Shown here piece by piece: positions 8,545 through 64,000 of a stretch of 64,000 nt of DNA. The stretch is from a virus. Lineage: Duplodnaviria; Heunggongvirae; Uroviricota; Caudoviricetes. Made by a program: the position numbers and the translations under genes. Numbering within the stretch: the first letter of the stretch is position 1; the number at the start of each line of letters is the position of its first letter. The notes below the pieces were generated by a model that saw only the letters and a program-made list of their open reading frames with translations, did no database searches and was not told the DNA's origin. Location of the stretch: IMG/VR virus record IMGVR_UViG_3300022661_000054; one strand, given 5' to 3'.

Positions 8545-9236
8545 TAATTAAAGTTACCTCCATTTTTAAGAATTTGTTTAATTACCATATTGTCTACCGA
8601 TTCAGATATATCTGTACCATAAGAAAACATATTTACTTTTTCCATGTCTGATAGAGATTTTATATACTGTTTAGCGGCATTAAAATATGTTGTATGGTAA
8701 AGAACGTGTGCCCTGAAAGTTTTTACAATCTTAAGCATGTCTTCACGTAAAAATATTTTACACGGTTTATCAGTAGCGTGATATATAAAGGTTTCTTCTC
8801 CCGCAACTAACTGACCTTCAATTACCATTAAGTTAATTTGATCTTCTGTAGTTAATTTAAAACTACACAATTCGCCATCAGATAAAGTAACAGAAAAACC
8901 GGCAGTAATTTTATTTTTACACGTATTAGAAAGACGTTTTATAACTTCACGCTTGGCCTTGGCAAGGGCTGATTCATTAGCGCTAGGCTCCTGACCAGAG
9001 TTTAATAGACTCTGTAGTCTATTAAACTCTTCAGAAGAAATTTCTTCAATAGTAACTATATCTGACTTTCTCTGCGCCAGAGGAGCAAATGCATATAAAG
9101 TTGTATTATCAGAACCGACTATTCCATGAGCGGAAGACTTATCCGTAAGATTTACTTGACCTGTAGACATCAGTCTAAAGAAGCGAGGTATCTTTACTAC
9201 ATCAATAACCTTATTATTAAGTATAATTTTATACAT
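8544..9236 (-). CDS. Hypothetical protein (230 aa), possibly a fibre assembly or adapter protein
   Basis: Its start overlaps the stop of the giant gene through a TAATG junction. No motif recognised. Confidence 0.65.
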   Translation of the reverse strand: MYKIILNNKVIDVVKIPRFFRLMSTGQVNLTDKSSAHGIVGSDNTTLYAFAPLAQRKSDIVTIEEISSEEFNRLQSLLNSGQEPSANESALAKAKREVIKRLSNTCKNKITAGFSVTLSDGELCSFKLTTEDQINLMVIEGQLVAGEETFIYHATDKPCKIFLREDMLKIVKTFRAHVLYHTTYFNAAKQYIKSLSDMEKVNMFSYGTDISESVDNMVIKQILKNGGNFN

Positions 9237-16990: not shown

Positions 16991-17054
16991 AAGCTTAACT
17001 CCAATCTACTTGTTTTATTGTTCGTATAATTTAGCAAATAGATTAAAAAAAATT

Positions 17055-17082
17055 AAGCAGGTGACCTTAAGGTCACCTGCTT
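17055..17082 (-). terminator. Intrinsic terminator after gene 17107..19398
   Basis: Perfect 28-nt palindrome aagcaggtgacc-ttaa-ggtcacctgctt followed by TTTTTTTT on the minus strand. Confidence 0.75.
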
Positions 17083-17106
17083 AAAACATATATTAGTATC
17101 TAATTA

Positions 17107-24142: not shown

Positions 24143-27100
24143 TTAAATAACCTCCTTAATGATGTATCTATACTTCTCTCCATTATTTACACTATCAAGA
24201 TTTACCCAGAGTGTGTAGTCATTAGGAACTGTTGGGACGTCTAATCCGCAGCTCTCAAGTGTTTCACTAATTAGATCTTTATCACAAGTTAATTGACTTG
24301 CAAAATCTGGGGAAGTGTTTTTCCATTCTTTAGAACCGTTGTCCCAAATTTTTACAGAAACTTGTAATTTATCTGAGTTTAAATCAAGACTGTTTGGAAG
24401 TGCAATCATATAAAACAATTCATTTTCATAACTTGTAAATTGTTGATAGCCAGACTCATTAACAGTATCACCATCAATAACTTGATAGAATCCAGCAGTA
24501 TCAGGAGCTTTTGTTGACTCTTCTACAGTCATCGTTTTATAGTTAAAAGCAACTTCCTCAAGTTGGCCACCAGCAGCTATTTGATACATAGGTAATTCAT
24601 TAGCTATTAAATTATCTATAATACCTTCTGGCTCGTCAGGATTTTCAGGTTCTTGTCCTGGCTGTTCATCAGTAAGCCCTAATAATTTAGCCAATATTTC
24701 TGCTATTTTAAGGTCTTTTATATTATCGCCGACTTTAAAATCTCCAATAGGGTTACTAATAAATTTAGCAGTTGTAAAAGGAGTATCATTAGCTTTAACA
24801 TCAACAGCTGTTGCAATTGCATTAGCTATTTCTGAAGTAGTTGAATAATCTTCAAGTGATTGATGTTCAGTTAAGTAGCCTTTAGCTGTAAGCTCTTCTT
24901 CTGTAATATATTCACTAGGTATTTCTGAGATAAACTTAGAAACGTCAGGAATATCAGACTTTAGAGCGAAATTGCTCACGTCAGGAATTTCTTTCTTAGT
25001 TGCTAAATGACTAATATCTTGATGCTGTGTTAAATAACCCTTAGATTCGAGTTCGCCCTCAGTTATGTATTCAGCAGGAACTTCGCTAATAAAACCTTCA
25101 ATCTCATCCTTAGTAACATAATTATCTAAGTTCACTACTGGATGTTCAATGGCCTCGATTGCGTTATTTAGTTCTTCTTTTGTTGCAAAACCATCAACAA
25201 CTGGCAGCTCTGTCTTCTTAACATACTCGCTAAGATCTTGATGCTCAGTAAGATATCCAGCATCATTAGTAAATGCACTTACGTTGGTAGGAACCTCTGG
25301 AATTTCAAGTGCAAAAATCTGTTCATTAACATATTGCTCAGAAGCAAGCCCATCGGTATTTGGAAGGCTATAAACCTCTTTACCAATTCTGATACTAGTT
25401 AATTCACCGTTAACTTCGCCGTCAGCGTTTGCTTCAACTTTATTTAATTTAACTTCTTTGGAAATTTCCCAGGTATTATCACTGTGTAAATAATAAGTAT
25501 TAAATGAACCATAAGCTTCACTTCTGCTTGTTAAGAATTTTGTAAATGTAATCATGTCACTTCTGACATAATTCATCACTGCGTAACCATTTACATCAGG
25601 AGCAGCATTAGCTAAAACCAGGAATTTGCCATTGTTATATGCATTAATTGCAGCAGTAAAGTCCGGTGCAGCAAAATCAACAACAAATAGTTCTGTCTCA
25701 GGAATTTCAATACCTGCAATAGCGTTATTTACAAACTCTTCAGTTGCGAGACCTTCTATAGAAGGAATTTCAAGCTCTTTGAACTTATTATCAACTTCAG
25801 TCTTGTTATAATAATTCGCAAGAAGATTATCAAGCTCTTCCTCAGTTACTTCGCCACCATTGAGCTCAGCTTTAGCAATTTCACTTCTAACAAAATCTTC
25901 CGAGGCGAGTCCTTCAATACTAGGAATTTCAGACTTCTTGGCATATTCACTAAGATTTTGATGCTCAGTTAAATAACCTTTAGCTTCAACATCTTCCATA
26001 GTAATAAAGCTAGAAGTATCAGGAATATCAATTCCATTTATTACTTCATTAACTAAGGCTTCTGTTTCAGATTTATTATAGTAATTAGATAAATTAACTT
26101 CAGGAATATCTTTAGCAGTGATGTAGCCTGCATCATTTTCTAATTCACTTACTTTTGTTGGATATTCAATATTACTAATTGCATTATCTACATATTCTTC
26201 AGTAGCATATTTTGCATCATTCTCAAGTTCACTTACTTTAGTAGGTACTGCAGGGATAAGTACATCAACTTCAGACTTAGTGTAATAAGCGCTAAGGTCG
26301 ACGTCCTGGTCAGCTAGTTCAGCTTCAGCAATTTTCTGAGTAACAAACTCCTTAGTAGCGACGTCAAGTTCTTGCTTACCAACGTTGAGCTTGTTATCCT
26401 CAGTAATTTCAACTTTATTAAGTTTAACTTCTTTTGAAACTTCCCAGGTATTAGCCGGACTTAGATAATAAGTATTAAATGCGCCGTAGGTTTCACTTCT
26501 ACTCATTAAGAATTTTGTAAATGTAATATATTTTTCACTTACATAATTCATTACGGCATAGCTATTAACGTCTGGAGCCGCATTAACTAAAACTAATACT
26601 TTTCCATTATTGTAAGCTTCAACTGCCTCGGCATAATCAGGAGCGTTGAAATCAACTTTATAAAGTTCAGCCTCAGGAAGCTCTATATTATTGATAGCCG
26701 TGTTAACGAATTCTTCTGTAGCCAAACCTTCGGTACTAGGAATCTCAGGCTTATTATTTAAATCGTTATAGTCTCTACTAAACAGCTCATCCTTTTTAGC
26801 ATAAGCTTCTAAACTTTGATGTTCAGTAAGATAGCCTTTTTTGTCAAGTGTGTCTTCTGTAATATACTCATTATGAGCATGATCTATTGTCGCATATTCT
26901 TCATGGCCATGTACTTTATTTGCATAATCTTCATGTAAATGATCAGTTGTTGCATAGTTAGCATGACTATGCTCAACAACTGCATATTCAGTATGCTCAT
27001 GATCTACGTCAGCCTTACCTGTAGCGATAGTAGTCAAAGCTTCAATAGCGTCCTTATTATTATCTATTAAGCTTCCAAGCTCTTTAAGAGTATCATAAGC

Positions 27101-28201
27101 TTCACCTGCGCCATTAAGAAGTTCATCTTTAATAGCCTGAGCAGTTCCTTTAATATCATATAAGTCATCGTGCTTATGGTCAATGTCTGCAACAGTACTT
27201 ATTCTCTCATCAATACGACGAGCAACAGCATCTGGCACAAGATCGTTGTGACAAGTATCATTGGTAAGAATTACACGAACTTTGTCCTTACTAATAAGTT
27301 TATCATCAGCATACCAGTGGAAGTTGTAGTAGAATCCAAGGTATTTATCAATAGTAGATCTGTCGCCAAACTTTGACCAGCTGTCACCACTCTTGTTGGC
27401 AATAGCCGACCATATCGTGGTATATTTTCTGCCTAAACTGTCAGTAGCAAGAGCACTATGCTCCGCATCCATCTTATCATTTGAGCCTTCAATAACGCTT
27501 GTAGCATTCTCTGGAGCATATGCTCGGAATGTCATATAGTAGTAAGAATCTGAACTACCATCACCGGCATTCTGAGGAGGCAGAGCATTGATGTCTACAT
27601 GCTCAGTATTCACTCTAACTTCGCTATTGTTATAACTAACAAACATTCCGTCAACAGGAAGTACTTCATACTTATTTTGTAAGTATTTTTGACTTGCTAC
27701 CCATTCTTGAGTTGCAGCTTTTTCAGTAAGTTCTTGGACTGTTGGAATAATTTCTGTTTCAACTTTTTGAACTGTTGGTAAAATCTGTTGCTCAACTGTA
27801 GGAATAACTTCTTTTTCGAGTTTTGTTTGTACCTGCTCAACTTTAGGAGTAAGCCCAGCAACAGCAGCTTCAACATGCTGCTCAGTAGCGTAATTAGCAT
27901 CATTTTCTAATTCACTTACTTTTGTAGGATTAGCTGGATGCTCGATATTATTAATTATAGTATCAATTTCTTCTTTACTATAGTAATCAGCTAAGTCTAT
28001 CCCATCACTGTTACTATAATTAATCTGCTTTAGCGTCAATAATTCTTGGCCACTATCGTCTTTATCAAAAACGCTTAAAAAGAGCTCTGCAGTGTCTGTA
28101 CAAAGATACCAACAATCTTCTTCTAAAACTATGTTAGGGTTAAGCTCCCCATCAATAAAAAGGTCAGTAGATAGACCTCGTCTAATATTAAGCTCAGACA
28201 T
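24143..28201 (-). CDS. Large repeat-rich fibre protein (1352 aa) with two duplicated ~95-aa modules, several short motif repeats and a His-rich decapeptide array
   Basis: The module ...NNGK.LVL.NAAPDVN.YAVMNYV......TFTKFL.SRSE.YG.FNTYYL...NTWE.SKEVKLNKVE appears twice. PTKVSELENDA.YATE appears three times. KGYLTEHQ.L.EY appears five times. The array is DHEHTEYAV / EHSHANYAT / DHLHEDYAN / VHGHEEYAT / DHAHNEYIT. Confidence 0.85.
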   Translation of the reverse strand: MSELNIRRGLSTDLFIDGELNPNIVLEEDCWYLCTDTAELFLSVFDKDDSGQELLTLKQINYSNSDGIDLADYYSKEEIDTIINNIEHPANPTKVSELENDANYATEQHVEAAVAGLTPKVEQVQTKLEKEVIPTVEQQILPTVQKVETEIIPTVQELTEKAATQEWVASQKYLQNKYEVLPVDGMFVSYNNSEVRVNTEHVDINALPPQNAGDGSSDSYYYMTFRAYAPENATSVIEGSNDKMDAEHSALATDSLGRKYTTIWSAIANKSGDSWSKFGDRSTIDKYLGFYYNFHWYADDKLISKDKVRVILTNDTCHNDLVPDAVARRIDERISTVADIDHKHDDLYDIKGTAQAIKDELLNGAGEAYDTLKELGSLIDNNKDAIEALTTIATGKADVDHEHTEYAVVEHSHANYATTDHLHEDYANKVHGHEEYATIDHAHNEYITEDTLDKKGYLTEHQSLEAYAKKDELFSRDYNDLNNKPEIPSTEGLATEEFVNTAINNIELPEAELYKVDFNAPDYAEAVEAYNNGKVLVLVNAAPDVNSYAVMNYVSEKYITFTKFLMSRSETYGAFNTYYLSPANTWEVSKEVKLNKVEITEDNKLNVGKQELDVATKEFVTQKIAEAELADQDVDLSAYYTKSEVDVLIPAVPTKVSELENDAKYATEEYVDNAISNIEYPTKVSELENDAGYITAKDIPEVNLSNYYNKSETEALVNEVINGIDIPDTSSFITMEDVEAKGYLTEHQNLSEYAKKSEIPSIEGLASEDFVRSEIAKAELNGGEVTEEELDNLLANYYNKTEVDNKFKELEIPSIEGLATEEFVNNAIAGIEIPETELFVVDFAAPDFTAAINAYNNGKFLVLANAAPDVNGYAVMNYVRSDMITFTKFLTSRSEAYGSFNTYYLHSDNTWEISKEVKLNKVEANADGEVNGELTSIRIGKEVYSLPNTDGLASEQYVNEQIFALEIPEVPTNVSAFTNDAGYLTEHQDLSEYVKKTELPVVDGFATKEELNNAIEAIEHPVVNLDNYVTKDEIEGFISEVPAEYITEGELESKGYLTQHQDISHLATKKEIPDVSNFALKSDIPDVSKFISEIPSEYITEEELTAKGYLTEHQSLEDYSTTSEIANAIATAVDVKANDTPFTTAKFISNPIGDFKVGDNIKDLKIAEILAKLLGLTDEQPGQEPENPDEPEGIIDNLIANELPMYQIAAGGQLEEVAFNYKTMTVEESTKAPDTAGFYQVIDGDTVNESGYQQFTSYENELFYMIALPNSLDLNSDKLQVSVKIWDNGSKEWKNTSPDFASQLTCDKDLISETLESCGLDVPTVPNDYTLWVNLDSVNNGEKYRYIIKEVI
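25502..25789 (-). repeat. Intragenic direct repeat, copy 2 of the ~290-bp module
   Basis: DNA-level similarity to 26402..26689, for example ttcccaggtatta...taagaattttgtaaatgtaat. Confidence 0.7.
26402..26689 (-). repeat. Intragenic direct repeat, copy 1 of the ~290-bp module
   Basis: See the copy-2 entry. The two copies encode paralogous ~95-aa segments. Confidence 0.7.
26861..27007 (-). repeat. Five tandem 30-bp repeats encoding the HxH decapeptide array
   Basis: Five consecutive decapeptides each contain H-x-H-x-(E/D/N)-Y-A. Confidence 0.7.
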
Positions 28202-29737: not shown

Positions 29738-30598
29738 TTACAGATATAGCTTATACTTATTTTGATTTTTAGCTGCGATGACGGTATTCTGCATAAGCAT
29801 TGCAATTGTCATAGGTCCGACACCACCAGGTACCGGAGTAATCCATGATGTTTTGCGTGAAACATTTTCAAAATCGACATCACCACAGAGCTTGCCGTCT
29901 ACACGGTTAATTCCGACATCAATAACGACAGCGCCGTCTTTAACCATATCTGCTGTAATAAACCCAGGACTGCCGACGGCAACCACAAGAATGTCAGCCC
30001 GACGACAAACTTCTGTCAAGTCATTAGTTTTAGAATGCGCTGTTGTGACAGTGCCGTCTTTGTGAAGCAATAGCATGCTCATTGGCTTTCCGACAATATT
30101 AGATCTACCTACAACAACACACTCTTTGCCAGCTACTTCAATATTATAGTAGTCAAGCATTTCCATAACACCTGCGGGGGTACAAGGAAGAAAATCATAT
30201 TCGCCGATCATAATTTTACCAACATTTTTTGGGTGAAAGGCATCTACATCTTTGTATGGACTAACTGCGTTCAAAACAGCTTTCTCGTCATAACCAGGTG
30301 GGAGGGGGAGCTGCACAAGAATACCATCAATTGCTTCGTCAATGTTTAAGTCGTAGATAAGTCTAATAAGCTTTTCCTGGCCAATATCCGCAGGTAAATT
30401 AAACTGTCTTGAAATAATACCCGTCTCCTCACAAGCCTTTTGCTTATTTCTTACATATACCTGCGAAGCTTGGTCTTCACCAACTAAGATAACAGCCAAA
30501 CAAGGATAAACTCTTTTTTCTTTTAGTTGTTTAACTTCTTCGGCTACACGCTCCTTAACCGCTTTTGATACAACCTTACCATCAATAATATTACTCAT
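29738..30598 (-). CDS. folD: Bifunctional 5,10-methylene-tetrahydrofolate dehydrogenase / methenyl-THF cyclohydrolase
   Basis: Full-length FolD (286 aa). Sequence reads NIIDGK...LAVILVGEDQASQVYVRNK...VVVGRSNIVGKPM. The YxxxK-type substrate motif and the GRSxIVGxP NAD(P)-binding motif are both present. Confidence 0.9.
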   Translation of the reverse strand: MSNIIDGKVVSKAVKERVAEEVKQLKEKRVYPCLAVILVGEDQASQVYVRNKQKACEETGIISRQFNLPADIGQEKLIRLIYDLNIDEAIDGILVQLPLPPGYDEKAVLNAVSPYKDVDAFHPKNVGKIMIGEYDFLPCTPAGVMEMLDYYNIEVAGKECVVVGRSNIVGKPMSMLLLHKDGTVTTAHSKTNDLTEVCRRADILVVAVGSPGFITADMVKDGAVVIDVGINRVDGKLCGDVDFENVSRKTSWITPVPGGVGPMTIAMLMQNTVIAAKNQNKYKLYL

Positions 30599-31552: not shown

Positions 31553-32443
31553 TTATTCTTCAATCTCGTCTCTAATATCTAGGATAGCTGAACCTTCACC
31601 CATAACCTGAGGAAGCTTGCCATCCCACTTTTCGTAAAATTTAGATTCAAGTACTTGGTCAGTCAGAGATTGAGTAAGAAGCTTATTAGCAGCTGCTTCT
31701 GCTTCAGCAGCAATTTTAAGAGCTTTTGCATCTGCCTCTGCCTTTGCAATCTTTGTCTCATTATCATAATCAGCCTTAAGCTTTGCCTGTTCGGCTACCA
31801 TCTTGTCCTCTACTGCTTTTTCAAAAGAATCAGAAAAATCGATATTAGTAAGCACTACAGCTTCTACACTGATAAAGTAGCCCTCGTCAACAGCTGCTTT
31901 GACTGCTGCTTCTACCTCAGGCGAGATAGCAGCTCTATTTGCAATAATATTCATAGCTTTATGTGAGGAAAGTACAGCCTTAGTTTTTTCAATAACAATA
32001 GACTGAATACGTCCCTGTAGTACCTCAAGAGTACCATACTGAGTAGCAATATCAGTTACCTTATCAGGAACGACTCGGTACTGAAGTGTCATGGCTACAT
32101 CCATAGTTTGTGCATCACTAGAATAAGCAGCAGTAATAATTTCTACATTCTGCACCTTAGTATCATACTTTGAATAAGAAGTGGTCATCCAAAGGTCAAA
32201 ATTCGTGCCTGCGTCTCTAGTACCTGTAATCTTACCTAAAGTTTTAACTACAGCGATCTCGCCAGAATTCACAGTACGAAACGAGAACGGTACCGCAATA
32301 AAGCTAATACAGAAGATAACAGTTAAAATAATACAAATTACCTTACCAGCCGCAATGTCATTCTCTGAGCAGTAATAAACACCAATGCCGCAGCCAATAG
32401 CCAAGACCGCTAACAAAATACCTACAAAAAATCCAATTGCCAT
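31553..32443 (-). CDS. SPFH / band-7 (stomatin-prohibitin-like) membrane protein
   Basis: N-terminal TM helices are followed by NSGEIAVVKTLGKITG...QNVEIITAAYSSDAQTMDVAMTLQYRV, which is typical of the SPFH core. The C-terminus has an Ala/Glu/Lys coiled coil. Confidence 0.8.
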   Translation of the reverse strand: MAIGFFVGILLAVLAIGCGIGVYYCSENDIAAGKVICIILTVIFCISFIAVPFSFRTVNSGEIAVVKTLGKITGTRDAGTNFDLWMTTSYSKYDTKVQNVEIITAAYSSDAQTMDVAMTLQYRVVPDKVTDIATQYGTLEVLQGRIQSIVIEKTKAVLSSHKAMNIIANRAAISPEVEAAVKAAVDEGYFISVEAVVLTNIDFSDSFEKAVEDKMVAEQAKLKADYDNETKIAKAEADAKALKIAAEAEAAANKLLTQSLTDQVLESKFYEKWDGKLPQVMGEGSAILDIRDEIEE

Positions 32444-36437: not shown

Positions 36438-37070
36438 TTACTTAAAATCTTCCCACTTAATCTTAACAATGACACGCTTGCCACAACGGTCTCGCATTTC
36501 TACCTTAGGTCTACCTACAAGACCTTCCATCTTAGCAGTTCCCATAGTAGAGTCAGGATGACCTTTTACAAAGTCTACACCTTCCTGAATAGTACCTTCA
36601 AAAATGATAGGAACAACATCAATTCCAAAAGACCTTGCGATATCTTCTACAGAGTCTCTGGACTGGTAATTACCACAAATAAGCACATCAAAAAGAATAA
36701 AGCTTACATCACTTCTATAGGCTCCGCCTTTCTGGATCTTAGGACCATAGCCTTCACCAAAAAGAATTACAGGAGTCTCACCAAACTTCTCCTCAAAAAT
36801 CTGCTCAGCTTCATTAGTCTTAAAAGTAGCTAAAAGATAATCAAGAAGAAAAACAGGAATCTGTGCTTTATCAGTTCTACCACCAAAAGAAATGGTATGA
36901 CCATCCCAGTACACACGAATATTGGTTCCGTCTACCTTTTCAGTAAACTGCCAAATATTATCCTTAAGAAACTCTACTGTCGGATTTCTAAACTCACCTT
37001 CAAGCAGCTTCTTAGTCCCGTCCATGTCTCTTTTCCAAAGAGTTTCAATCTTATTATATTCTACCATCAT
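36438..37070 (-). CDS. Small ATP-dependent polynucleotide ligase-like nucleotidyltransferase (KxDG motif I)
   Basis: FTEKVDGTNIRVYWDG is ligase motif I (KxDGxN). Size is 210 aa. Confidence 0.55.
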   Translation of the reverse strand: MMVEYNKIETLWKRDMDGTKKLLEGEFRNPTVEFLKDNIWQFTEKVDGTNIRVYWDGHTISFGGRTDKAQIPVFLLDYLLATFKTNEAEQIFEEKFGETPVILFGEGYGPKIQKGGAYRSDVSFILFDVLICGNYQSRDSVEDIARSFGIDVVPIIFEGTIQEGVDFVKGHPDSTMGTAKMEGLVGRPKVEMRDRCGKRVIVKIKWEDFK

Positions 37071-37588: not shown

Positions 37589-37834
37589 TTAACCCTCTCT
37601 CCAAGTACACAAAACTGCAGCTATGATAGCAATAAGTATAAGTACCACTACTAAACCAATGCTAATCCATATGGGTGAAAATACCCACCACCAACTCCAG
37701 TTAATTACCTTAAACAGCTTTAAAATAACAAATAAAGCAGTAAGTATAAATATAAAATCAAGTTCTTCTTTAGTTTCTTCAACATTTTTCTGATTAGTTT
37801 CTTCTTTAGACATTCCCCAAAATAACCCTTTCAT
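37589..37834 (-). CDS. Small membrane protein (81 aa)
   Basis: Two hydrophobic helices. Overlaps the upstream gene by 29 nt. Confidence 0.5.
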   Translation of the reverse strand: MKGLFWGMSKEETNQKNVEETKEELDFIFILTALFVILKLFKVINWSWWWVFSPIWISIGLVVVLILIAIIAAVLCTWREG

Positions 37835-38831
37835 TAACGCTCATAAGAAATTCATTTATTTTATCGTAGTCAGGCTTGTCAGGTAAACTTGAATTTTCAG
37901 CTGCATAAAGCATTCTACGTTCAAATTCGTTTACTATATCATAAAATCCAGGAATTGGCTGTCCGTCTTCATCTAGAAATTTACCATATCTAAAACTTAA
38001 TAAATATTCAAGGTCTTGTTCGCGGTAAGTGATAATTTCTTCTTTTTCAAGAATATCAATGCACATCAAATAAAGTCTGATTAAATGCATCATATGTTTG
38101 CCAAGTCTACCATTATCAATAGCATTCTGATTTCGATGTCCAATTTTATCATAACCTGAGACTACATTCTTCATATCTGACCACATGCTTTTATAATCTC
38201 TAAGAGGATAGTGAGTAAGATGAAGGTCAATAAAGATTTCTTTATCTAAATCTTCTTGATCTGAATCGTCTAAATAAAGATTAATATAGTCATCTTCACC
38301 GAAACATTTATAAGTGTCGGGCCAAACGTAGCTAGCAGTCATAATACTATTTAGTATATGTTGTTCTCTTTCCGCTTGTGCCACAGTTCGTGCTGCTTTA
38401 TTGTCTAATCGACGGAGCTGTGCTGTTGCATACCCACCAAAAGACTGTACTGCTTTTTTAGAAAGAAATAACTTTCTATTATCTATAAGCTCCTGACCGA
38501 TAGGAGAAAGATAGAGATAATGTTCAGGTTTCAATCCAAGCATTTCAATAACATTTGGATTCGCGTTTGTAAGCAATGATACAATTTTTCTAATAGAATA
38601 AATAGTTGTATCAGTTTCGTTATTAACTACCTGTTCAAAGTTAGCTGCACCAAGTATTTCTGCTTTAGTGTTAAGAGCTACGCCACGAATATCTATATCT
38701 GAGCCTTCTACATTAGTTCCATAAGCATGCGAGCCGCCAAGTCCGAGTAAAATAATATTGTTGCCTAAATGAGGATTTGTTTTAAGGAAATCATATTCTG
38801 GTGTTTTTAAAATTGCTTTAAAATCAGTCAT
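37806..38831 (-). CDS. Pol-beta-superfamily nucleotidyltransferase domain protein (341 aa)
   Basis: LLGLGGSHAYGTNVEGSDIDIRGV matches the minimal NTase motif GS.....SD.D. Confidence 0.7.
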   Translation of the reverse strand: MTDFKAILKTPEYDFLKTNPHLGNNIILLGLGGSHAYGTNVEGSDIDIRGVALNTKAEILGAANFEQVVNNETDTTIYSIRKIVSLLTNANPNVIEMLGLKPEHYLYLSPIGQELIDNRKLFLSKKAVQSFGGYATAQLRRLDNKAARTVAQAEREQHILNSIMTASYVWPDTYKCFGEDDYINLYLDDSDQEDLDKEIFIDLHLTHYPLRDYKSMWSDMKNVVSGYDKIGHRNQNAIDNGRLGKHMMHLIRLYLMCIDILEKEEIITYREQDLEYLLSFRYGKFLDEDGQPIPGFYDIVNEFERRMLYAAENSSLPDKPDYDKINEFLMSVNERVILGNV

Positions 38832-44198: not shown

Positions 44199-44855
44199 TC
44201 ATTTAAACTTAGCTCCCTTACATCCTTCAACAGTTAGACCTTTCATAGCAGTACCACAGTTAGGACAGAACTTGTAAGTATCATTTGCCTTCTGGTTACA
44301 CTCAGAGCATACAACTAACTTAAACATGAAGTCAGGACACTCCTCATCAGTCTCAAGTCTCCAGGTCGCTTGCTTATTAGAAAGTCTAGAAATCCTATTA
44401 ATAGCATCTTCAGGAGTATGTCCATCCCAGGTAGGAGCTCTGTCTAGTTCTTTTACTTTGAACATATCCCAATAAGGGTCAATGTCATAATGATAAGTTG
44501 CCTGACCTTCTGGTGTTTCAATACCTACTATAAACATTCCTTCGAACATATCACCAGTATCATGTAACTTACTCTTCCAAGCTTTGTCTGGAAACATATT
44601 ACAAATTACTGAAAACAGAACTGCTCTATGATGATAGAGCTCATTAAATGTATGATAACCATCTGACAAGTCACCAATACCAGTTTTTGGAACTTCTACT
44701 ACATTTACTATACGTGCTTTTGCCAACATAGTAAGAAAATGCTTATGCTCATGAAGATGCATTTGCCTTTGAATGCTATTTGAGTGTGGATTATTTCGTT
44801 TACTATGTATTACTTCTGTTTCCAGTTCACTAATATCTATATATCTTTTTTTCAT
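44199..44855 (-). CDS. Hypothetical protein (218 aa) with a C-terminal zinc ribbon
   Basis: CSECNQK...CPNCG. Confidence 0.7.
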   Translation of the reverse strand: MKKRYIDISELETEVIHSKRNNPHSNSIQRQMHLHEHKHFLTMLAKARIVNVVEVPKTGIGDLSDGYHTFNELYHHRAVLFSVICNMFPDKAWKSKLHDTGDMFEGMFIVGIETPEGQATYHYDIDPYWDMFKVKELDRAPTWDGHTPEDAINRISRLSNKQATWRLETDEECPDFMFKLVVCSECNQKANDTYKFCPNCGTAMKGLTVEGCKGAKFK

Positions 44856-47684: not shown

Positions 47685-48833
47685 TTAAATAGAATATTTA
47701 TCCTTAAGTTTTTTAAATGCCTCAAGATACTCTTCCCATTTGTTCTCATTCCACTTAGAAGTAAAGTCTTCCATAGTTACCTCTCGGTCATAATTATAAT
47801 ACAGTAAGCCCTGATAAATTTTCGGCAAAGCTTGAACTAATCTGGCATAGTCACCTTTCGATAACTTACCAGATATTTCTCTACAAGCTTTAGCAAGCTG
47901 GTTTCCTATATTAGTAAATCCGTTAATAAGCTTCTGAACTTTTTCAAGTTCTTCCTTATAGTCCGAGGCGTAGCAAAGAAACTCTTCAGTCTCATTAGCA
48001 AGTATTACGCGAAGTAATAGCTTGGTAGTAATCACATTATTATTACGAGTATAGTGAGCCAGGATATAAGAAGGAGACTTTACCTTAACCCTATTGAAGT
48101 TAGCATCTGCTACTACGAATCCTTCTTGATCCCAGTCGAATTCCTCAGTTACTTTAATACATTCTTCTAGCGAAGTGAGAGGAAAGACTTTAGGAAGCTT
48201 AAACTTACCAAGTCCAAGAGCACCAGCAATCAGAGGCGAGCAGTTAAACTCTTCTCCAGTAAACTTATTGCGTGCACCGAGAAAATAGAGTTCCGGTTCT
48301 TCGTAAGGAACTACTACTCTATTATAAGGTCCTACTAGTTCGAACATATAGGTAAGGTTCTGATCTAAGCTATCAACAAAAGCACCGTAACAGTTATAGT
48401 ATTTACTAAGTACTTCTAAGAAGTAGTTTCCGAAGTCGGGCATCTTTACACCGCCTAGCTCGGCTTTGAAGGCATCAATAGTTCCATTAGTGCTGACATG
48501 CCATCTATCATCATACCAGATCTTGATCAGAGAACCATCAATCTTTTCAGTAACGAAAGAAGTAGCCCAGTCGATCTCAGGTACGTAAGATTCACCATAG
48601 TTTCCGAACTTATTAAATGCCCAGCAAACAGGAGTTTCCCACTCACCTTTACGGAAGATGATACCTCTTGCTTCTCTAACTATAGTATAGGAGAAGTCAG
48701 ATCTAATCTGGTCATAACTAAACATTACATAGGGCCCATCTTCTTTAATCTTAATGTAATAAGGTTCTTCAACAAGTACCTGTTCCCAGTCTTCATGTCT
48801 GGCGCAGAAGTAACCAATATCAGTAGTAAACAT
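47685..48833 (-). CDS. RNA ligase 1-like (T4 RnlA-like) ATP-dependent RNA ligase
   Basis: The 382-aa size is close to that of T4 Rnl1. Motif I is TEKIDGSLIK (KxDG). The N-terminal region FSYDQIRSDF...REARGIIF resembles my recollection of Rnl1 (FSYNYASYSDW...ECRGIMF). Confidence 0.75.
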   Translation of the reverse strand: MFTTDIGYFCARHEDWEQVLVEEPYYIKIKEDGPYVMFSYDQIRSDFSYTIVREARGIIFRKGEWETPVCWAFNKFGNYGESYVPEIDWATSFVTEKIDGSLIKIWYDDRWHVSTNGTIDAFKAELGGVKMPDFGNYFLEVLSKYYNCYGAFVDSLDQNLTYMFELVGPYNRVVVPYEEPELYFLGARNKFTGEEFNCSPLIAGALGLGKFKLPKVFPLTSLEECIKVTEEFDWDQEGFVVADANFNRVKVKSPSYILAHYTRNNNVITTKLLLRVILANETEEFLCYASDYKEELEKVQKLINGFTNIGNQLAKACREISGKLSKGDYARLVQALPKIYQGLLYYNYDREVTMEDFTSKWNENKWEEYLEAFKKLKDKYSI

Positions 48834-58663: not shown

Positions 58664-59629
58664 TTACATATCTCCTTTACTAAAAAACTTTTGCGGTAAT
58701 CCAACGCGGTTGAATAACTCCTGACATAGATCATCGAGTATAGTATCATCATATGCTTCAATGATTTCCGGCTCGAACTCGAAGGTTTCTCCGGTAGGAT
58801 TATAGTTAGTAATGATTACTTCTTTACCTTTACGATCAGAACCATTTCGGTTGATACTTCTGCGGACATCTACTACTTCAATCTTACAGTCTTTATAGAG
58901 TTCTCTGATCAGCGGCGTATCATGGTTGGTGAGCATGCAGTAACATCCTCTGTTAGTCAACTCTTTGAAAAGCTTTGCGAGCCGCACATGATCCTCGTAG
59001 CTGAATCCTTCTTTAGTGTAGTCAGTAAAAGATGTAGGTGTAAGCGGTGCGTAAGGGGAATCGAAGAATACGAAGTCATTCATGCCAGCACCTTTAACCG
59101 CTTCTTCGAAATCCTTGTTAAGCACTAAAGTATGACTTAATACTTCTGCTGTATTGCGAAGATGATCTTCATCGAAGGATCTACCAGAGAGTTTCCCGTT
59201 AAAAGGAACATTGAATTCACCTTTGCTATTAACTCTGTACAGTCCATTGAAGCAGTGTTTATTGATGTAGATGAATCTAGCGGCTTGCTCTGCAGTGTTT
59301 GATCCTAGCATCTTATTAAATTCTTCTCTAACTATGTAGTAGAAATCCTTCGGTTCTTTGTACTCCTCATGACATGAATCAAGGTTCTTTAATTCATCTA
59401 TTACTCTACTAACATTATACTTAATCTGAAGATACATGTTCGTAAGCTCCGGATTAATATCGTTAACTATCGCATTAGTCGGCATAATATCTAGTAGAAC
59501 CGCAAGACCGCCTGCGAAAGGTTCGTAGTACTTCTGATATGGATACTTATTAAAGTTAACAGGAAGTCGTTCTTTAATCTTATCTAACAGTTGATGCTTG
59601 CCCCCAACCCATTTAACAATTGGTTTCAT
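58664..59629 (-). CDS. DNA N6-adenine methyltransferase, Dam/D12 class
   Basis: Motif I reads IVKWVGGKHQLL...YYEPFAGGLAV. Motif IV (DPPY-like) is FFDSPYAP. Confidence 0.85.
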   Translation of the reverse strand: MKPIVKWVGGKHQLLDKIKERLPVNFNKYPYQKYYEPFAGGLAVLLDIMPTNAIVNDINPELTNMYLQIKYNVSRVIDELKNLDSCHEEYKEPKDFYYIVREEFNKMLGSNTAEQAARFIYINKHCFNGLYRVNSKGEFNVPFNGKLSGRSFDEDHLRNTAEVLSHTLVLNKDFEEAVKGAGMNDFVFFDSPYAPLTPTSFTDYTKEGFSYEDHVRLAKLFKELTNRGCYCMLTNHDTPLIRELYKDCKIEVVDVRRSINRNGSDRKGKEVIITNYNPTGETFEFEPEIIEAYDDTILDDLCQELFNRVGLPQKFFSKGDM

Positions 59630-59643
59630 TATGTATAGTCTCC

Positions 59644-60033
59644 TTAAACAAGCATCGTAAGTTGTTCAAGTTCTTCTGCGGTAAGAAGAGGTGCAAGCTT
59701 GTAACGACCTTTATAATAAGGTTTTGCTTCTTCATCTCCAAAGAAATCTAACTGATTGAGTAACCAGCCAGCATGAGCATAGGCAGATGTCTTACCTCTC
59801 TTCGCGCCAGTAAGAGTAGCTCTAACTTTTTCAGTTAGTTCATTCAACATCTTATTAACTCCGGATACACCGTAAGCAGGAGTACCTTTGAGAATATTAA
59901 CTATAGTAACATAATATCTAGCAAGTTCAGCACCGCTCTTATCTCTACGAGCTTTGTATCCTTCCAGAATCTCTCTGTTCCGAGGTTTGCTAAACTGACA
60001 GATGTAAGTGTTTTCTACCTGATTAAATTTCAT
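59644..60033 (-). CDS. Hypothetical protein (129 aa)
   Basis: ORF. Confidence 0.65.
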   Translation of the reverse strand: MKFNQVENTYICQFSKPRNREILEGYKARRDKSGAELARYYVTIVNILKGTPAYGVSGVNKMLNELTEKVRATLTGAKRGKTSAYAHAGWLLNQLDFFGDEEAKPYYKGRYKLAPLLTAEELEQLTMLV

Positions 60034-60145
60034 AATATATTCTCCTTCGTAAATTAATCTGATATATTATACGATCTTCTAATTCTAAATCTAGTAATAT
60101 AAAATAAAAAAAATGTCGATCACCATAGGGTAACCGACATTAAGT

Positions 60146-60349
60146 CTACTCTTTAAAGAGTCTTACTATCTTAAAACATGAGATAATAAAATTAACGATC
60201 CACAGAACCGTGAGCAGAATACAGTACTCTTTAGTAGAGAATATATTCCAAAGTAGCTTAGTAGCACACCAGAAGATGAAACACTCTGCTGCTGCTACGT
60301 AGAAAGACCTAACAGCTGCTAGAAGCATAGTAGCGAATACAATGAACAT
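60146..60349 (-). CDS. Small membrane protein (67 aa)
   Basis: Two TM helices. Confidence 0.5.
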   Translation of the reverse strand: MFIVFATMLLAAVRSFYVAAAECFIFWCATKLLWNIFSTKEYCILLTVLWIVNFIISCFKIVRLFKE

Positions 60350-60360
60350 ATCTGTACCAT

Positions 60361-60798
60361 CTACTTACCTTGTAGAGCGAGCTTCTTAACTTCTTTAAAA
60401 GAACAAGCAGCAGGATCAGCTGCTACCTTACAGCTTTCGCAGTCAGTCTTTACACAGTGTTCTTCTAAGCAGCAATAGCACCAGCCAGGAAAGTCTTCTA
60501 AGAAATCTGAGCTTGCTACGTAGTGATGGTTATTTGTAGGATACAGTAGTTCAGTGCCGCACTGTTTACAGGTCTTATACTCTTCTAAGTTGGCTAAGAT
60601 CTCTTGTTCTTTATTAGATGCTCCAGTATCCTCGATCAAACTTTCGATAGTCTTTACGCAGAAATCTTTGAAAGCTATAGTTGCAGCATTCCATGTTGCT
60701 GCGTTATCTGTAGTAGGTTTCTTCTTGAATACAAGGTAAGCTGCATCGAGTTCTTTCTTAAGCTGTCTAGCAGTATTGATTATAGTTGTATCAATCAT
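60361..60798 (-). CDS. Cys-rich hypothetical protein (145 aa)
   Basis: CKQCGTE...CYCCLEEHC...CESC. Confidence 0.65.
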   Translation of the reverse strand: MIDTTIINTARQLKKELDAAYLVFKKKPTTDNAATWNAATIAFKDFCVKTIESLIEDTGASNKEQEILANLEEYKTCKQCGTELLYPTNNHHYVASSDFLEDFPGWCYCCLEEHCVKTDCESCKVAADPAACSFKEVKKLALQGK

Positions 60799-60894
60799 GT
60801 GTATCCTCCTAAATATAGTTCTCTATTATTATACAATAAAAAAATTAACTGTGTAGTTAAAGTCCACACAGTTAATTTAGCAAACACTTATTAA

Positions 60895-61296
60895 TCAATA
60901 CTCACGTCTGATGCCACCGCCGAAAGACTTAACAAAGATATCTCCGAATTCTGAGAATGCTTCATTATTCTTATTCCAAACATAAGCGAAGACATAGTAA
61001 CAATTATTATCAGCATCCATGATAAGGTCGTCCATCTCATAATCTTTAGTAGCACAAAGCATAGACCACATCTCATCACCATCAATAAATTCATGAGTAA
61101 GAGCATAGACTACACAATCATATTCTGCTTCGACCTCTTTTACTTTCTTCCAAACATCAGGTTCTTGATCAACGTAGAACCCACCAAAGTTTTCAAAGAA
61201 ACAAGGAATGCCGGCTTTCGATTTAAACTTTCTTACGTAAGGTTTATAGATGTCGAGTTTCTCCAAACATTGAATGGCTACCTCTTTCTGTGTCAT
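60895..61296 (-). CDS. Hypothetical protein (133 aa)
   Basis: ORF. Confidence 0.65.
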   Translation of the reverse strand: MTQKEVAIQCLEKLDIYKPYVRKFKSKAGIPCFFENFGGFYVDQEPDVWKKVKEVEAEYDCVVYALTHEFIDGDEMWSMLCATKDYEMDDLIMDADNNCYYVFAYVWNKNNEAFSEFGDIFVKSFGGGIRREY

Positions 61297-61446
61297 GTTA
61301 TATTCCTCCGTAATTTTTATTATGTATATATTATACCGTATTTATTATAGAATGTAAATATGCAGAACGCACAAAGTTTAAAATTTATTCTATAGCTTTT
61401 ATATAGAAAAAGAACCGCACCAGTAATCGATACGGTTCTGGGTTAT

Positions 61447-61665
61447 TTAGAATCCTTCTACTTCGGTATCAACCTTCAGCATCTCAACCAAGGTTCCAGA
61501 GTACTCAGGAGTATCTGATACTTTGACTACTTTGAATCTAGTAGGATAGGGTCTAAGACCGTCATGATCAGTGATCCTGAAACACTGTCCTTCTTTCAAA
61601 GGAATCTTAGACTTAAACTCAAGTGTGTTCGACCAATGGCTTGATTCTACTTTGTAATAAAACAT
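61447..61665 (-). CDS. Hypothetical protein (72 aa)
   Basis: ORF. Confidence 0.6.
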   Translation of the reverse strand: MFYYKVESSHWSNTLEFKSKIPLKEGQCFRITDHDGLRPYPTRFKVVKVSDTPEYSGTLVEMLKVDTEVEGF

Positions 61666-61690
61666 ACGTTCTTTCTCCTTTATAAACCTA

Positions 61691-61882
61691 TTATAAGATT
61701 ACGCCAAGTTCTCTAAACTCAGTGATCAGTCCGAAGCGAACTGCGATGTCTTTAAAGAACTTAGAGGTACCGCGGATTTCCTCAGGCGAAAGCTTTACAG
61801 TCTTAGCCCATCTTGCCCAACGTTCCGCTAGCTCTCTGTAAACCTTTTGATTCTTATTGTAATAACAAGTATATTTACTCAT
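61691..61882 (-). CDS. Hypothetical protein (63 aa)
   Basis: ORF. Confidence 0.55.
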   Translation of the reverse strand: MSKYTCYYNKNQKVYRELAERWARWAKTVKLSPEEIRGTSKFFKDIAVRFGLITEFRELGVIL

Positions 61883-61952
61883 ATACGTCTCTTCTCCTTA
61901 GTTTAATCTTATTATATTATACGATATGAAAAGTGTTTATATAAAGAAAAAA

Positions 61953-61975
61953 GACCGTTTTAGACGGTCTTAAAA
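61953..61975 (-). terminator. Intrinsic terminator
   Basis: aagaccg-tttta-cggtctt hairpin followed by TTTTTTCTTT on the minus strand, with an A-run on the other side. Confidence 0.6.
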
Positions 61976-62245
61976 AGAAATAAAAAAAGGAGGTGAAATA
62001 TTTATTTACTTTTCTGATTAAAAAGATCATCAGAGCGTAGCGGTGTATACTTTACAAAATTTATCATTCAAAAGAAGGAGGAAAAGAAATTGGAGGAAAA
62101 AATATATAATCACACATTCCGCCCACCCGCTAAGCCAGTCGGCGGTTTTAAATATAAAACACATTCAAACACACCGCTACGCTCTGTTTTATTATACGAT
62201 ATAAAGTTTTAAGATTTAGTAACTTTTTCTAAAAACTTTTAAACT

Positions 62246-62434
62246 TTAACCAAGCAGCTTCTGACAGCTCTTAATAGTAGAGTACTGACCTGAATACTGC
62301 TCCATAAAAGTCTGCATTGCCATCTGGTGACTATCTGCTTCTACCAGAGCAACTCCAGTATTATTCATACCCCATTGAGAAGAAGGCAAGAAGTAAACAA
62401 CTTTCCAGGTTTCCAAAGGTCCATAATATCCCAT
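62246..62434 (-). CDS. Hypothetical protein (62 aa)
   Basis: ORF. Confidence 0.55.
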   Translation of the reverse strand: MGYYGPLETWKVVYFLPSSQWGMNNTGVALVEADSHQMAMQTFMEQYSGQYSTIKSCQKLLG

Positions 62435-62457
62435 AATAATTCTCCTTTTGATTTTAA

Positions 62458-62721
62458 TTATTTTTCAATATACTTACGTTTAAAATTCTTTCTAATATAA
62501 TATACGATAAAAGCCGAGATAAAAATGACAAATGAAATAAATTCATAAATAAAAAATTGTCGGATAGTAATCCTATCTAACTCAAGTGCTCCTAGTACAT
62601 TAACCATACCGAATGCACCGAAGACGCCAAGAAAGTAACCTAGAATCTTAAGAAATTCACTAATAGCATTTTTAAGTTTCATTGGACACCTCAATTCTGA
62701 AGCCACTTGATATAAAGCCAC
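62458..62721 (-). CDS. Small membrane protein (87 aa)
   Basis: Two TM helices. Confidence 0.55.
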   Translation of the reverse strand: MALYQVASELRCPMKLKNAISEFLKILGYFLGVFGAFGMVNVLGALELDRITIRQFFIYEFISFVIFISAFIVYYIRKNFKRKYIEK

Positions 62722-62927
62722 TCACTAGCAAAAGCAAGAGCAAGTAAGATCCACAGACCCCAATTAACCAGAGGAAGTCCTAGGGCATACCAGATAAAGA
62801 CATAAGAAATCCAAAAGCCCATAGACATCATCCAAGTCAACAACCAAAACTTAATAGCATTTACGATTCTATCTTTACGTTTACTAAAGAAATCTTTAAT
62901 TTTATTAAACCAACTTTTCATACTCAA
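62691..62927 (-). CDS. Small membrane protein (78 aa)
   Basis: Trp-rich TM helices. Confidence 0.55.
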   Translation of the reverse strand: MSMKSWFNKIKDFFSKRKDRIVNAIKFWLLTWMMSMGFWISYVFIWYALGLPLVNWGLWILLALAFASEWLYIKWLQN

Positions 62928-63337
62928 ATCTCCTCATCTTCGCCGTACTCTCTCATAATCCGTTCCCACTCTCCCAAGAAGAACTCAGCAGTAGCTTTAG
63001 GATCATCGTTATACTCAAGAGCAATGCAAGTATCGTCTACATCACCTTCTTTGTTGATCGGCATGTCCATTAATTCGAAGTCAGTATAAGCATACGGACC
63101 TTCGTTGACTGCGATCTTAATACACATCGCATACTTAGGATTAGACTTGCTAATACAGAGAAGGTCAGAGTAATCCTCAGAGAATCCTTCCATCCATCCG
63201 CCGATGATACTAAAAGGTTTGTTCTCAGTATCCTTAAACCAGGCGATAGAAAAACAGTTATCGTCTTTCGCAGCTTCGATAATCTCTTCAACCCACTCTG
63301 TCAGGTTGTTGAGCATAGTAGTATTCTTAGTATTCAT
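62924..63337 (-). CDS. Hypothetical acidic protein (137 aa)
   Basis: ORF. Confidence 0.65.
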   Translation of the reverse strand: MNTKNTTMLNNLTEWVEEIIEAAKDDNCFSIAWFKDTENKPFSIIGGWMEGFSEDYSDLLCISKSNPKYAMCIKIAVNEGPYAYTDFELMDMPINKEGDVDDTCIALEYNDDPKATAEFFLGEWERIMREYGEDEEI

Positions 63338-63358
63338 TTGTATATGTACCTTCTTTCG

Positions 63359-63577
63359 TTAATCTCTAAATCCGTATTTCTTATTTAGCTCGTCATAGTT
63401 AGTAATCCAGTTTACCAGGATTGCTTGAGCCAACTTCTCAGAGAGCTCAGGACAGAACTCTTTCAGATAAGGAGCTGCTCCAAACATATTGCAAACACCA
63501 GTTCGTCTGATACCTTCTAAAACTTTATAATACTCTTCCCACTCTTCACGAATAGGATACTTTTCTTGATCAAACAT
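63359..63577 (-). CDS. Hypothetical protein (72 aa)
   Basis: ORF. Confidence 0.6.
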   Translation of the reverse strand: MFDQEKYPIREEWEEYYKVLEGIRRTGVCNMFGAAPYLKEFCPELSEKLAQAILVNWITNYDELNKKYGFRD

Positions 63578-63785
63578 CGAACTCCTCCTCTACAACTTTA
63601 TCTCTCATTCTGAGAAGCAGAGCTTTGTATTCTTCAAGGTCTGCCATATTGTCAATGTGCATCTGAGACTCTTCTTGAGTATCACTTCCATGCATCCACA
63701 GGGTTTCGTTAGAAATCATTCCAACTACTTGCTTCATCTCTTCGTCGATCATAGCAAGTAATCTAATCTTCATAATCTCACTCAT
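63570..63785 (-). CDS. Hypothetical protein (71 aa)
   Basis: ORF with an aGGAGGact RBS. Confidence 0.6.
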   Translation of the reverse strand: MSEIMKIRLLAMIDEEMKQVVGMISNETLWMHGSDTQEESQMHIDNMADLEEYKALLLRMRDKVVEEEFDV

Positions 63786-63788
63786 AGC

Positions 63789-63953
63789 TTAGTCCTCCAA
63801 ATCATTAACATTGATACCAAACATCTTCTTAACCATAAAGTCAGTTAACTTAATACCAACTTTAGTATTCTCGGCAAACCAACCGCAGACGCTTAATAAA
63901 AACATAAAAGCGAATACCAAGAAAAGATAGATTAAAGCGGTTCCGATTTCCAT
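63789..63953 (-). CDS. Unlisted small membrane protein (54 aa), MEIGTALIYLFLVFAFMFLLSVCGWF...
   Basis: ATG with a tttGGAGGaa RBS. Intact frame. Confidence 0.45.
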   Translation of the reverse strand: MEIGTALIYLFLVFAFMFLLSVCGWFAENTKVGIKLTDFMVKKMFGINVNDLED

Positions 63954-64000
63954 AATAAAGTTCCTCCAAAAATAAAATGTGTTATAATATGTAGTCGTTA

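Follow-up and report, generated by a model that had tools for sequence, protein, structure and literature searches.

A putative structured RNA gene with CCUCC motifs, conserved between two small genes of a large uncultured phage

CCUCC is the core of the anti-Shine-Dalgarno sequence of 16S ribosomal RNA (rRNA), the 3' tail of which reads GAUCACCUCCUUUCU in Firmicutes. RsaE/RoxS and the C-rich loops of RNAIII of Staphylococcus aureus are Firmicute RNAs that mask G-rich ribosome-binding sites via unpaired C-rich motifs, and RegB of phage T4 is an early endoribonuclease, i.e., a protein, that cleaves the GGAG Shine-Dalgarno sequences in early messenger RNAs (mRNAs) and reprogrammes translation. 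The CsrB/RsmZ sponges contain many copies of a GGA motif in unpaired contexts, and Y RNA/YrlA possess a long closing stem together with an internal loop that is large and rich in pyrimidines, the bacterial Y RNAs being associated with RNA-repair genes. In LhrC, three redundant CU-rich sites, which are found in a loop, a stretch without pairing and the loop of the terminator, block a Shine-Dalgarno sequence (PMC4132741). Here we report on the interval 61883-62245 of a stretch of 64,000 nucleotides (nt; 64 kb, hereafter the window) from IMG/VR record IMGVR_UViG_3300022661_000054, the source of which is an uncultured phage of ~220 kb. This interval, a gap, separates two small genes of the minus strand (62246-62434 and 61691-61882), and the element found in it is very probably a conserved structured minus-strand RNA gene, for which LhrC appears, by analogy, to be the closest mechanistic precedent.

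A sequence-only reading of the gap had drawn attention to an inverted repeat that encloses a GC-rich hairpin and three plus-strand GGAGG motifs. The repeat is exact: CAGAGCGTAGCGGTGT at 62031-62046 and its perfect reverse complement at 62171-62186 form 16 base pairs (bp) across a spacer of 124 nt, and if A-U and G.U pairs are counted, the helix reaches 18 bp (62031-62048 with 62169-62186). Of all the inverted repeats in the window that measure 14 nt or more and have arms within 300 nt of each other, it is the sole perfect long-spacer one; the remaining perfect ones are hairpins with 0-24 nt between their arms, and in one further case, with 94% complementarity, 43 nt separate the arms. We estimate that a perfect 16-mer inverted repeat within 150 nt is expected by chance ~0.01 times per window at this composition, and the repeat is more than chance. 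The GC-rich hairpin (ccgcc...ggcgg, 62119-62145, followed by TTTT on the plus strand) and the plus-strand GGAGG motifs (at 61989, 62077 and 62092, i.e., three within 108 nt, while the whole 64 kb has 11) are likewise present. Both strands of the region fold far better than shuffled sequences, with -75.1 kcal/mol (z = -7.0) for the minus strand and -62.6 kcal/mol (z = -5.9) for the plus strand.

The evidence for a conserved structure comes from a comparative set of 19 distinct sequences, which comprises the window and 18 further homologues that occupy the same intergenic slot and have 45-87% protein identity to the window's neighbours. Each homologue, taken alone, has a perfect long-range stem of 9-18 bp at the equivalent place, and the stem sequences differ (see Table 1 for three of them). 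RNAalifold recovers this stem from an unsupervised MAFFT alignment, with compensatory double changes in seven of nine pairs. From the MAFFT alignment a covariance model, R1, was built; in the R1-based alignment 85.8% of the cells are paired and both sides change in 11 of the 14 pairs. None of 500 shuffles reaches the observed stem pairing values, and pairing falls to 33.5-58.7% when the partner is slid by 1-3 columns. In the window, R1 detects a single copy on the minus strand (62032-62186, 79.2 bits, E ~5e-14), while the plus strand scores 24.8 bits. As a specificity control, R1 was run on ~1 Mb of genomic and viral loci chosen only for a CU-rich pattern and found nothing there. The stem is therefore a conserved secondary structure backed by compensatory changes, the property on which the idea of a structured non-coding RNA in this gap had been made to depend.

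Covariation that preserves complementarity cannot alone separate RNA from a single-stranded DNA structure, and a packaging or replication site had also been considered for the gap. A DNA-level element of this or a related kind (a cruciform, a protein-binding inverted repeat, a replication origin or a packaging site) is nevertheless very improbable, as its arms would be complementary across 55-124 nt of freely variable spacer in the different homologues, GC skew shows no inflection at the element, no iterons or tandem repeats were seen in the region, and a predicted promoter and terminator of one polarity bracket the element across the family.

The family was reached via synteny alone because searches with the DNA, the stem and the CU-rich core gave no relatives. 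The region itself had no megablast or blastn match among 50,697 phage records, and the 137-amino acid (aa) neighbour, used as a query for related viral contigs, found none. A scan of IMG/VR with the stem 16-mer gave seven single-arm matches, which were rejected as chance matches: the second arm is absent, and blastn found otherwise no similarity to the element in those loci. The conserved CU core, searched as a degenerate pattern, had 119 matches in bacterial/archaeal genomes and 12 in IMG/VR; none of them scored with the covariance model, and they were not accepted as family members. The 63-aa neighbour has 52 metagenome homologues with 58-98% identity, and loci anchored on this protein were fetched from JGI/NCBI metagenomes, IMG/VR and other assemblies. 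In L029-L032, the 63-aa protein is only 45-47% identical to that of the window.

Wherever a locus extends far enough upstream, a non-coding gap separates the ~60-aa gene from the 62/63-aa gene, and this gap measures ~240-330 nt in the loci with called genes. The gaps share a layout in which a TATAAT-like box is followed by the long-range stem, then by a CCUCC-containing stretch rich in pyrimidines and finally by a terminator. Of the 19 homologues, 18 have the TATAAT-like box no more than ~10 nt upstream of the closing stem (17 of 18 besides the window, the exception being L021), the terminator is present in all 18 further homologues, and the RNA extends 20-110 nt past the closing stem. Three features are conserved: the closing stem, at the level of structure; the CU-rich core; and a hairpin termed P3, which part of the family has. 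The CU-rich core is the best-conserved sequence among close homologues, reading UUUUUCCUCCAAUUUCUUUCCUCCUUCUUUU in close relatives. The window and L012, L014, L021, L023, L029, L035 and L039, all of them folded, retain the P3 stem sequence immediately before the terminator, and the P3 loop is C-rich in five of these eight (the window, L012, L014, L029 and L039; e.g., CACCUCC, CCUCCCC and CACCCCC). The GC-rich hairpin at 62119-62145, which had been counted as part of the element, is confined to the window lineage: all 18 other homologues have different small hairpins or none at that place, and it is a variable insert. A more distant phage (L028:2025-2440; IMGVR_UViG_3300012983_000036) has, at the corresponding position, two tandem promoter-driven CCUCC-rich units with three and four motifs, respectively, and the first unit has a 15-bp closing stem of unrelated sequence.

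On the minus strand of the window, the promoter box is followed by the 5' arm of the closing stem, its 3' arm, the P3 hairpin, the terminator and a second promoter-like box (Table 1), an order that is consistent with transcription as a discrete RNA, the promoter and ends of which are predicted from sequence. Consensus and conservation suggest that 62191..62217 may work as a promoter. Its -10 box ends 4 nt ahead of the 5' stem arm, and the motif ATCGTATAAT also fronts neighbouring small genes (61916-61925, 62499-62508 and 60066-60075). The GTATAAT-type box probably represents a shared phage promoter class without a canonical -35; a strict bipartite pattern for the upstream promoter box had no match in the window. 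More generally, an (A/T)T(C/T)GTATAAT box is found before several small genes on the minus strand of 59000-64000, often directly after a terminator, and related loci have an extra A/T-rich box, AAATTTAGAAA, ~10 nt upstream of the GTATAAT-type box. The two CCUCC motifs of the pyrimidine-rich core, at 62092-62096 and 62077-62081, have predicted unpaired probabilities of 0.96 and 0.77, respectively, and the CCUCC in the P3 loop has one of 1.0.

With its own promoter-like box directly before the stem, the element does not fit the earlier suggestion of a 3' untranslated region. It is not simply the leader of the 63-aa gene either, because a separate promoter-like box (61911..61925) precedes that gene. 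A cis-acting leader would require read-through of the terminator, after which CCUCC would pair with the ribosome-binding site of the 63-aa gene as an attenuator or a sequestor of the site. Every homologue has the RNA immediately upstream of the 63-aa gene and in the same orientation, and CCUCCUU is complementary to the AAGGAG site of this gene. A strong terminator and the separate promoter-like box intervene, however, in the window and most homologues, the distance and the intervening sequence vary freely, and an alternative anti-terminator pairing is not conserved, all of which makes such a leader improbable.

We read the RNA from the minus strand, as are all the credible genes of the window, and on this reading its motifs are CCUCC and not GGAGG; the earlier suggestion of a structured non-coding RNA thus holds for the structure and has to be revised for the strand. 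In the 19 homologues, 5.1 of the 8 nt after the terminator hairpin are T in the sense orientation, vs 0.8 in the antisense orientation. The stem adds nothing to the strand call: G.U and A.C combinations are balanced (14 vs 13), and these counts are uninformative because the outer pairs are partly out of register. The sense strand folds more stably in only 12 of the 19 homologues, which is weak evidence for the strand. With these two lines uninformative or weak, the polarity therefore rests on the promoter box (18/19) and the terminators.

Read from the plus strand, the element would be an RNA with GGAGG/GGA motifs (e.g., a ribosome or CsrA sponge) or the small TTG-initiated protein gene of the sequence-only reading. 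The TTG frame exists mechanically (40 codons, 62090-62212, with the TTG 8 nt past the GGAGG at 62077-62081), the plus strand too folds better than shuffles, a gene caller placed a 37-aa antisense ORF (open reading frame) in the homologous region of L039 and L040, and a few C.A mismatches of the stem would be G.U pairs on the opposite strand. We nonetheless give the plus-strand readings hardly any weight. Within 61000-63000, plus-strand promoter-like sites are found only at 61847-61875 and 62410-62437 and none within the element, the terminator U tracts of the family are on the minus strand, and the hairpin with TTTT (62119-62149) is not conserved. No ORF is conserved on either strand in the 19 homologues: an antisense ORF of at least 20 codons is absent in 12 of them, those in the rest share neither frame nor sequence, and the indels of the region are not multiples of three. 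The 37-aa ORFs in the public gene calls (L039:1245-1358 and L040:1245-1358), which run antisense within the RNA region, are probably false calls due to the GGAGG opposite the CCUCC of the RNA.

Table 1. Positions of the predicted RNA gene, its parts, its neighbours and other features of the window, with closing-stem arms of two homologues
Feature	Position	Strand	Sequence or remark
Predicted small RNA	~62186 to ~61945 (61945..62186)	(-)	~240 nt; covariance-model core 62032-62186
Promoter-like region	62191..62217	(-)	TATAAT -10 box 62196 to 62191, within ATATCGTATAAT 62202 to 62191
Upstream A/T-rich box	62217 to 62207	(-)	AAATCTTAAAA; part of the promoter-like region
P1 closing stem, 5' arm	62169..62186	(-)	CAGAGCGUAGCGGUGUGU; at or within a few nt of the predicted RNA 5' end
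P1 closing stem, 3' arm	62031..62048	(-)	AUACACCGCUACGCUCUG; covariation in homologues
GC-rich hairpin in the P1 loop	62119..62145	(-)	Lineage-specific variable insert
Pyrimidine-rich single-stranded core	62070..62102	(-)	UUUUUUCCUCCAAUUUCUUUUCCUCCUUCUUUU; two CCUCC, 62092-62096 and 62077-62081
Hairpin P3	61973..62014	(-)	AAAAGUAAAUAA / UUAUUUCUUUU; loop displays CACCUCC, 61989-61995
Predicted intrinsic terminator	61945..61971	(-)	Stem-loop AAGACCGUCUAAAACGGUCUU 61971 to 61951, then U tract; minus strand only
Separate promoter-like box	61911..61925	(-)	ATCGTATAATATAAT; for the downstream 63-aa gene, past the RNA terminator
Closing stem compared, window			5' arm CAGAGCGUAGCGGUGU; 3' arm ACACCGCUACGCUCUG
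Closing stem compared, L012			5' arm GACGGUGCGGAGCGU; 3' arm AUGCUCCGCGCCGUC
Closing stem compared, L042			5' arm GAGCACGGUGGUGUGU; 3' arm ACACCACCGUGC
Upstream flanking gene, 62 aa	62246..62434	(-)	Syntenic with the RNA in all loci reaching far enough upstream
Downstream flanking gene, 63 aa	61691..61882	(-)	Three helices; anchor for finding homologous loci
(A/T)T(C/T)GTATAAT boxes, examples	60066-60075, 60828-60837, 61916-61925, 62191-62200, 62499-62508	(-)	
RNA-repair-type gene set	47685-48833, 36438-37070, 37806-38831	all (-)	T4 Rnl1-like RNA ligase, second RNA ligase (PF09414), RlaP nucleotidyltransferase (Pfam scan)
Auxiliary genes	29738-30598, 31553-32443, 44199-44855, 5462-6259, 58664-59629	all (-)	FolD-type methylene-tetrahydrofolate dehydrogenase/cyclohydrolase, SPFH/Band-7, WDGH-domain + zinc ribbon, family-2 glycosyltransferase, Dam-type D12 methyltransferase

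A prominent sequence feature of the family is CCUCC itself: the 19 RNAs, with 3,604 nt in total, contain 53 copies, vs 2.3 expected from composition, and GGAGG does not occur at all. Each homologue has one to five copies, most of them with a predicted unpaired probability >0.7. The motifs are found in the single-stranded stretch, in the P3 loop and, in L022 only, in the terminator loop; next to them, U and C abound and G is almost absent, CCUCCUU is the most frequent extended form, and the spacing between motifs varies from 11 to 16 nt. The longest matches to the Firmicute 16S tail are 7-12 nt in each RNA, although this tail may not be that of the host. The instance in the window, UCACCUCCUUU, is an 11-nt match to the same tail.

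The Rfam scan that had been suggested for the gap yielded no family: neither the window nor the 19 homologous loci have a match in Rfam 15 at the gathering score, and all the sub-threshold matches of the window have E >5. The covariance model of LhrC (RF00616) gave no match even at E <= 10, that of RsaE/RoxS (RF01820), the conserved motif of which is CCCC and not CCUCC as here, gave none, and the Rfam models of 6S RNA, Y RNA/YrlA and phi29 pRNA gave none either. In the literature searched, no earlier account of a CCUCC-rich phage RNA came up. The element is a new RNA family in that it lies outside Rfam 15 and this literature; its general kind, small RNAs with C/U-rich seeds, is known, and its architecture and phage setting are distinct from those of the known members of this kind. 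Like LhrC1-5 of Listeria monocytogenes, the RNA has its own predicted promoter and terminator and would display several CU-rich motifs in a hairpin loop and in single strand, and in homologue L022, as in LhrC, one such site lies in the terminator loop. Unlike LhrC, it is phage-encoded and twice as long, its motif is CCUCC instead of CUCCC, and its seeds sit in a loop that is enclosed by a 5'-terminal stem of 14-18 bp, which LhrC lacks. RsaE/RoxS and RNAIII differ from it in having CCCC/UCCC motifs, in being chromosomal and in being controlled by stress or quorum, whereas the present RNA is located in a phage cluster of early type. With Y RNA/YrlA it shares the long closing stem and the pyrimidine-rich loop, and the phage also carries RNA ligases and RlaP; it differs, however, in continuing 20-110 nt beyond the stem, and no TROVE/Ro match was found among the 25 window proteins scanned against Pfam. 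It resembles CsrB/RsmZ in having many copies of one short unpaired motif, but GGA-containing motifs are confined to the strand for which no transcription is predicted.

We tentatively propose, with slightly less than even confidence, that the RNA acts in trans and masks GGAGG-type Shine-Dalgarno sites via redundant CCUCC seeds. In this proposal, the transcript would start at ~62186, from a promoter like those in front of the neighbouring small genes, and the intrinsic terminator would end it at ~61945. The 5' end would pair with a segment ~140 nt downstream to form a closing stem of 14-18 bp, which would hold a largely unstructured pyrimidine-rich loop with two CCUCC motifs, while a third CCUCC would be shown in the loop of the conserved hairpin just before the terminator. 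The exposed CCUCC(UU) seeds may pair with ribosome-binding sites of the AAGGAGG/GGAGG type in host or phage mRNAs, and such pairing would block binding of the 30S subunit and hence initiation. The 5'-terminal stem may serve both as a scaffold that keeps the seeds in an open loop and as a shield against 5' exonucleases. Transcription as a discrete RNA, the trans action, the Shine-Dalgarno partners and the choice of mRNAs are all inferred. If masking holds, RegB would be a functional analogue, with the difference that RegB cleaves the motif whereas the present RNA would mask it by pairing.

Several points weigh against this proposal. The promoter and transcript ends are predictions. No specific target emerged: an RNAduplex scan of the window's minus-strand transcripts found purine-rich coding segments as often as initiation regions, and a search for the complement of the dual motif gave nothing notable. 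CCUCC seeds would fit nearly every Shine-Dalgarno sequence, including those of the phage itself, so that specificity or stoichiometry is left unexplained. The CA that precedes CCUCC in 16S rRNA is found before just 8 of the 53 motifs, and mimicry of 16S rRNA beyond CCUCCUU is partial. A pyrimidine-rich single strand could equally well be a protein-binding platform. A broader possibility, which we regard as doubtful, is that a clade of large phages encodes an early-expressed RNA with several copies of the 16S anti-Shine-Dalgarno tail, which would either mask GGAGG sites globally, as a translation shut-off or temporal switch, or decoy defence nucleases aimed at the tail of the ribosome.

The main rival to masking is that the same RNA gene is a decoy or sponge, in which CCUCC(UU) would titrate a host or phage RNA-binding protein or an endoribonuclease/toxin that attacks the 16S anti-Shine-Dalgarno tail, and the RNA would thereby protect ribosomes or sequester a regulator. 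A toxin with such a target is known: MazF-mt3 cleaves U/CCUU in the anti-Shine-Dalgarno sequence of 16S rRNA. Anatomy, conservation and motif enrichment fit a decoy equally well, and known protein sponges are built in this way, with a short motif repeated several times in loops or single strand. The phage has genes for the repair of RNA damage (the Rnl1-like ligase, the second RNA ligase and RlaP), and two conserved small proteins without assigned function always flank the RNA. No candidate binder was found, however: the 63-aa neighbour has no sequence or fold relative, and the 62-aa neighbour only weakly resembles proteins that bind RNA polymerase. In addition, no toxin that recognizes CCUCC is known for the host, and the variable motif spacing of 11-16 nt speaks against a site for a fixed multimeric protein. 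We consider a decoy unlikely on balance.

Very few phage regulatory RNAs have a known mechanism, and almost none comes from uncultured large phages. Because the comparative evidence is clean and the motif itself indicates the Shine-Dalgarno sequence as the likely partner, masking by the present RNA is a directly testable hypothesis on how phages control translation. For annotation, the strong antisense GGAGG can lead gene prediction to spurious small ORFs, probably the case in L039 and L040, and the covariance model R1 can be used to annotate the family in viromes.

The two flanking small proteins (Table 1) have no Pfam, PHROG or PDB sequence match. The AlphaFold model of the 62-aa protein (predicted local distance difference test, pLDDT, 82) weakly resembles T7 Gp2, the Firmicute RNA polymerase epsilon subunit YkzG and the ribosomal protein eL20, with Foldseek E values of 0.1-1 and template modelling scores (TM-scores) of 0.5-0.76. 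Judged from this model, the protein is possibly an RNA-polymerase-binding host-takeover protein. The 63-aa protein has a confident three-helix model (pLDDT 90) with an invariant R-W...W and an RFGL motif, and this model had no fold match.

The window matches the metagenomic contig ENA ERZ27248370 k141_4000472 (220,267 bp), in which gene callers leave the gap empty. The region 59-64 kb is a run of small genes, several with a GTATAAT box in front, and we infer that it is an early or host-takeover region. The ribosome-binding sites of the phage genes are GGAGG or AAGGAG, and the minus strand of the window has 43 GGAGG, mostly at gene starts; from this site usage, the host would depend on Shine-Dalgarno initiation. 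A lysin-like protein (66-1046, minus strand) contains Peptidase_M23 and three S-layer-homology (SLH) domains. Because of the site usage and the SLH-domain lysin, the sequence points to a Bacillota-type host with SLH-binding cell-wall polymers and Shine-Dalgarno initiation. Apart from the RNA-repair-type and auxiliary genes listed in Table 1, the window has two giant ORFs on the minus strand, 9236-16990 and 24143-28201, of 2,584 and 1,352 aa, respectively, the latter without a match in a Pfam scan. Other structures of the window include a perfect 32-nt palindrome without spacer at 17053-17084 (TTAAGCAGGTGACCTT/AAGGTCACCTGCTTAA) and a perfect 18-bp hairpin with a 7-nt loop at 4547-4589.

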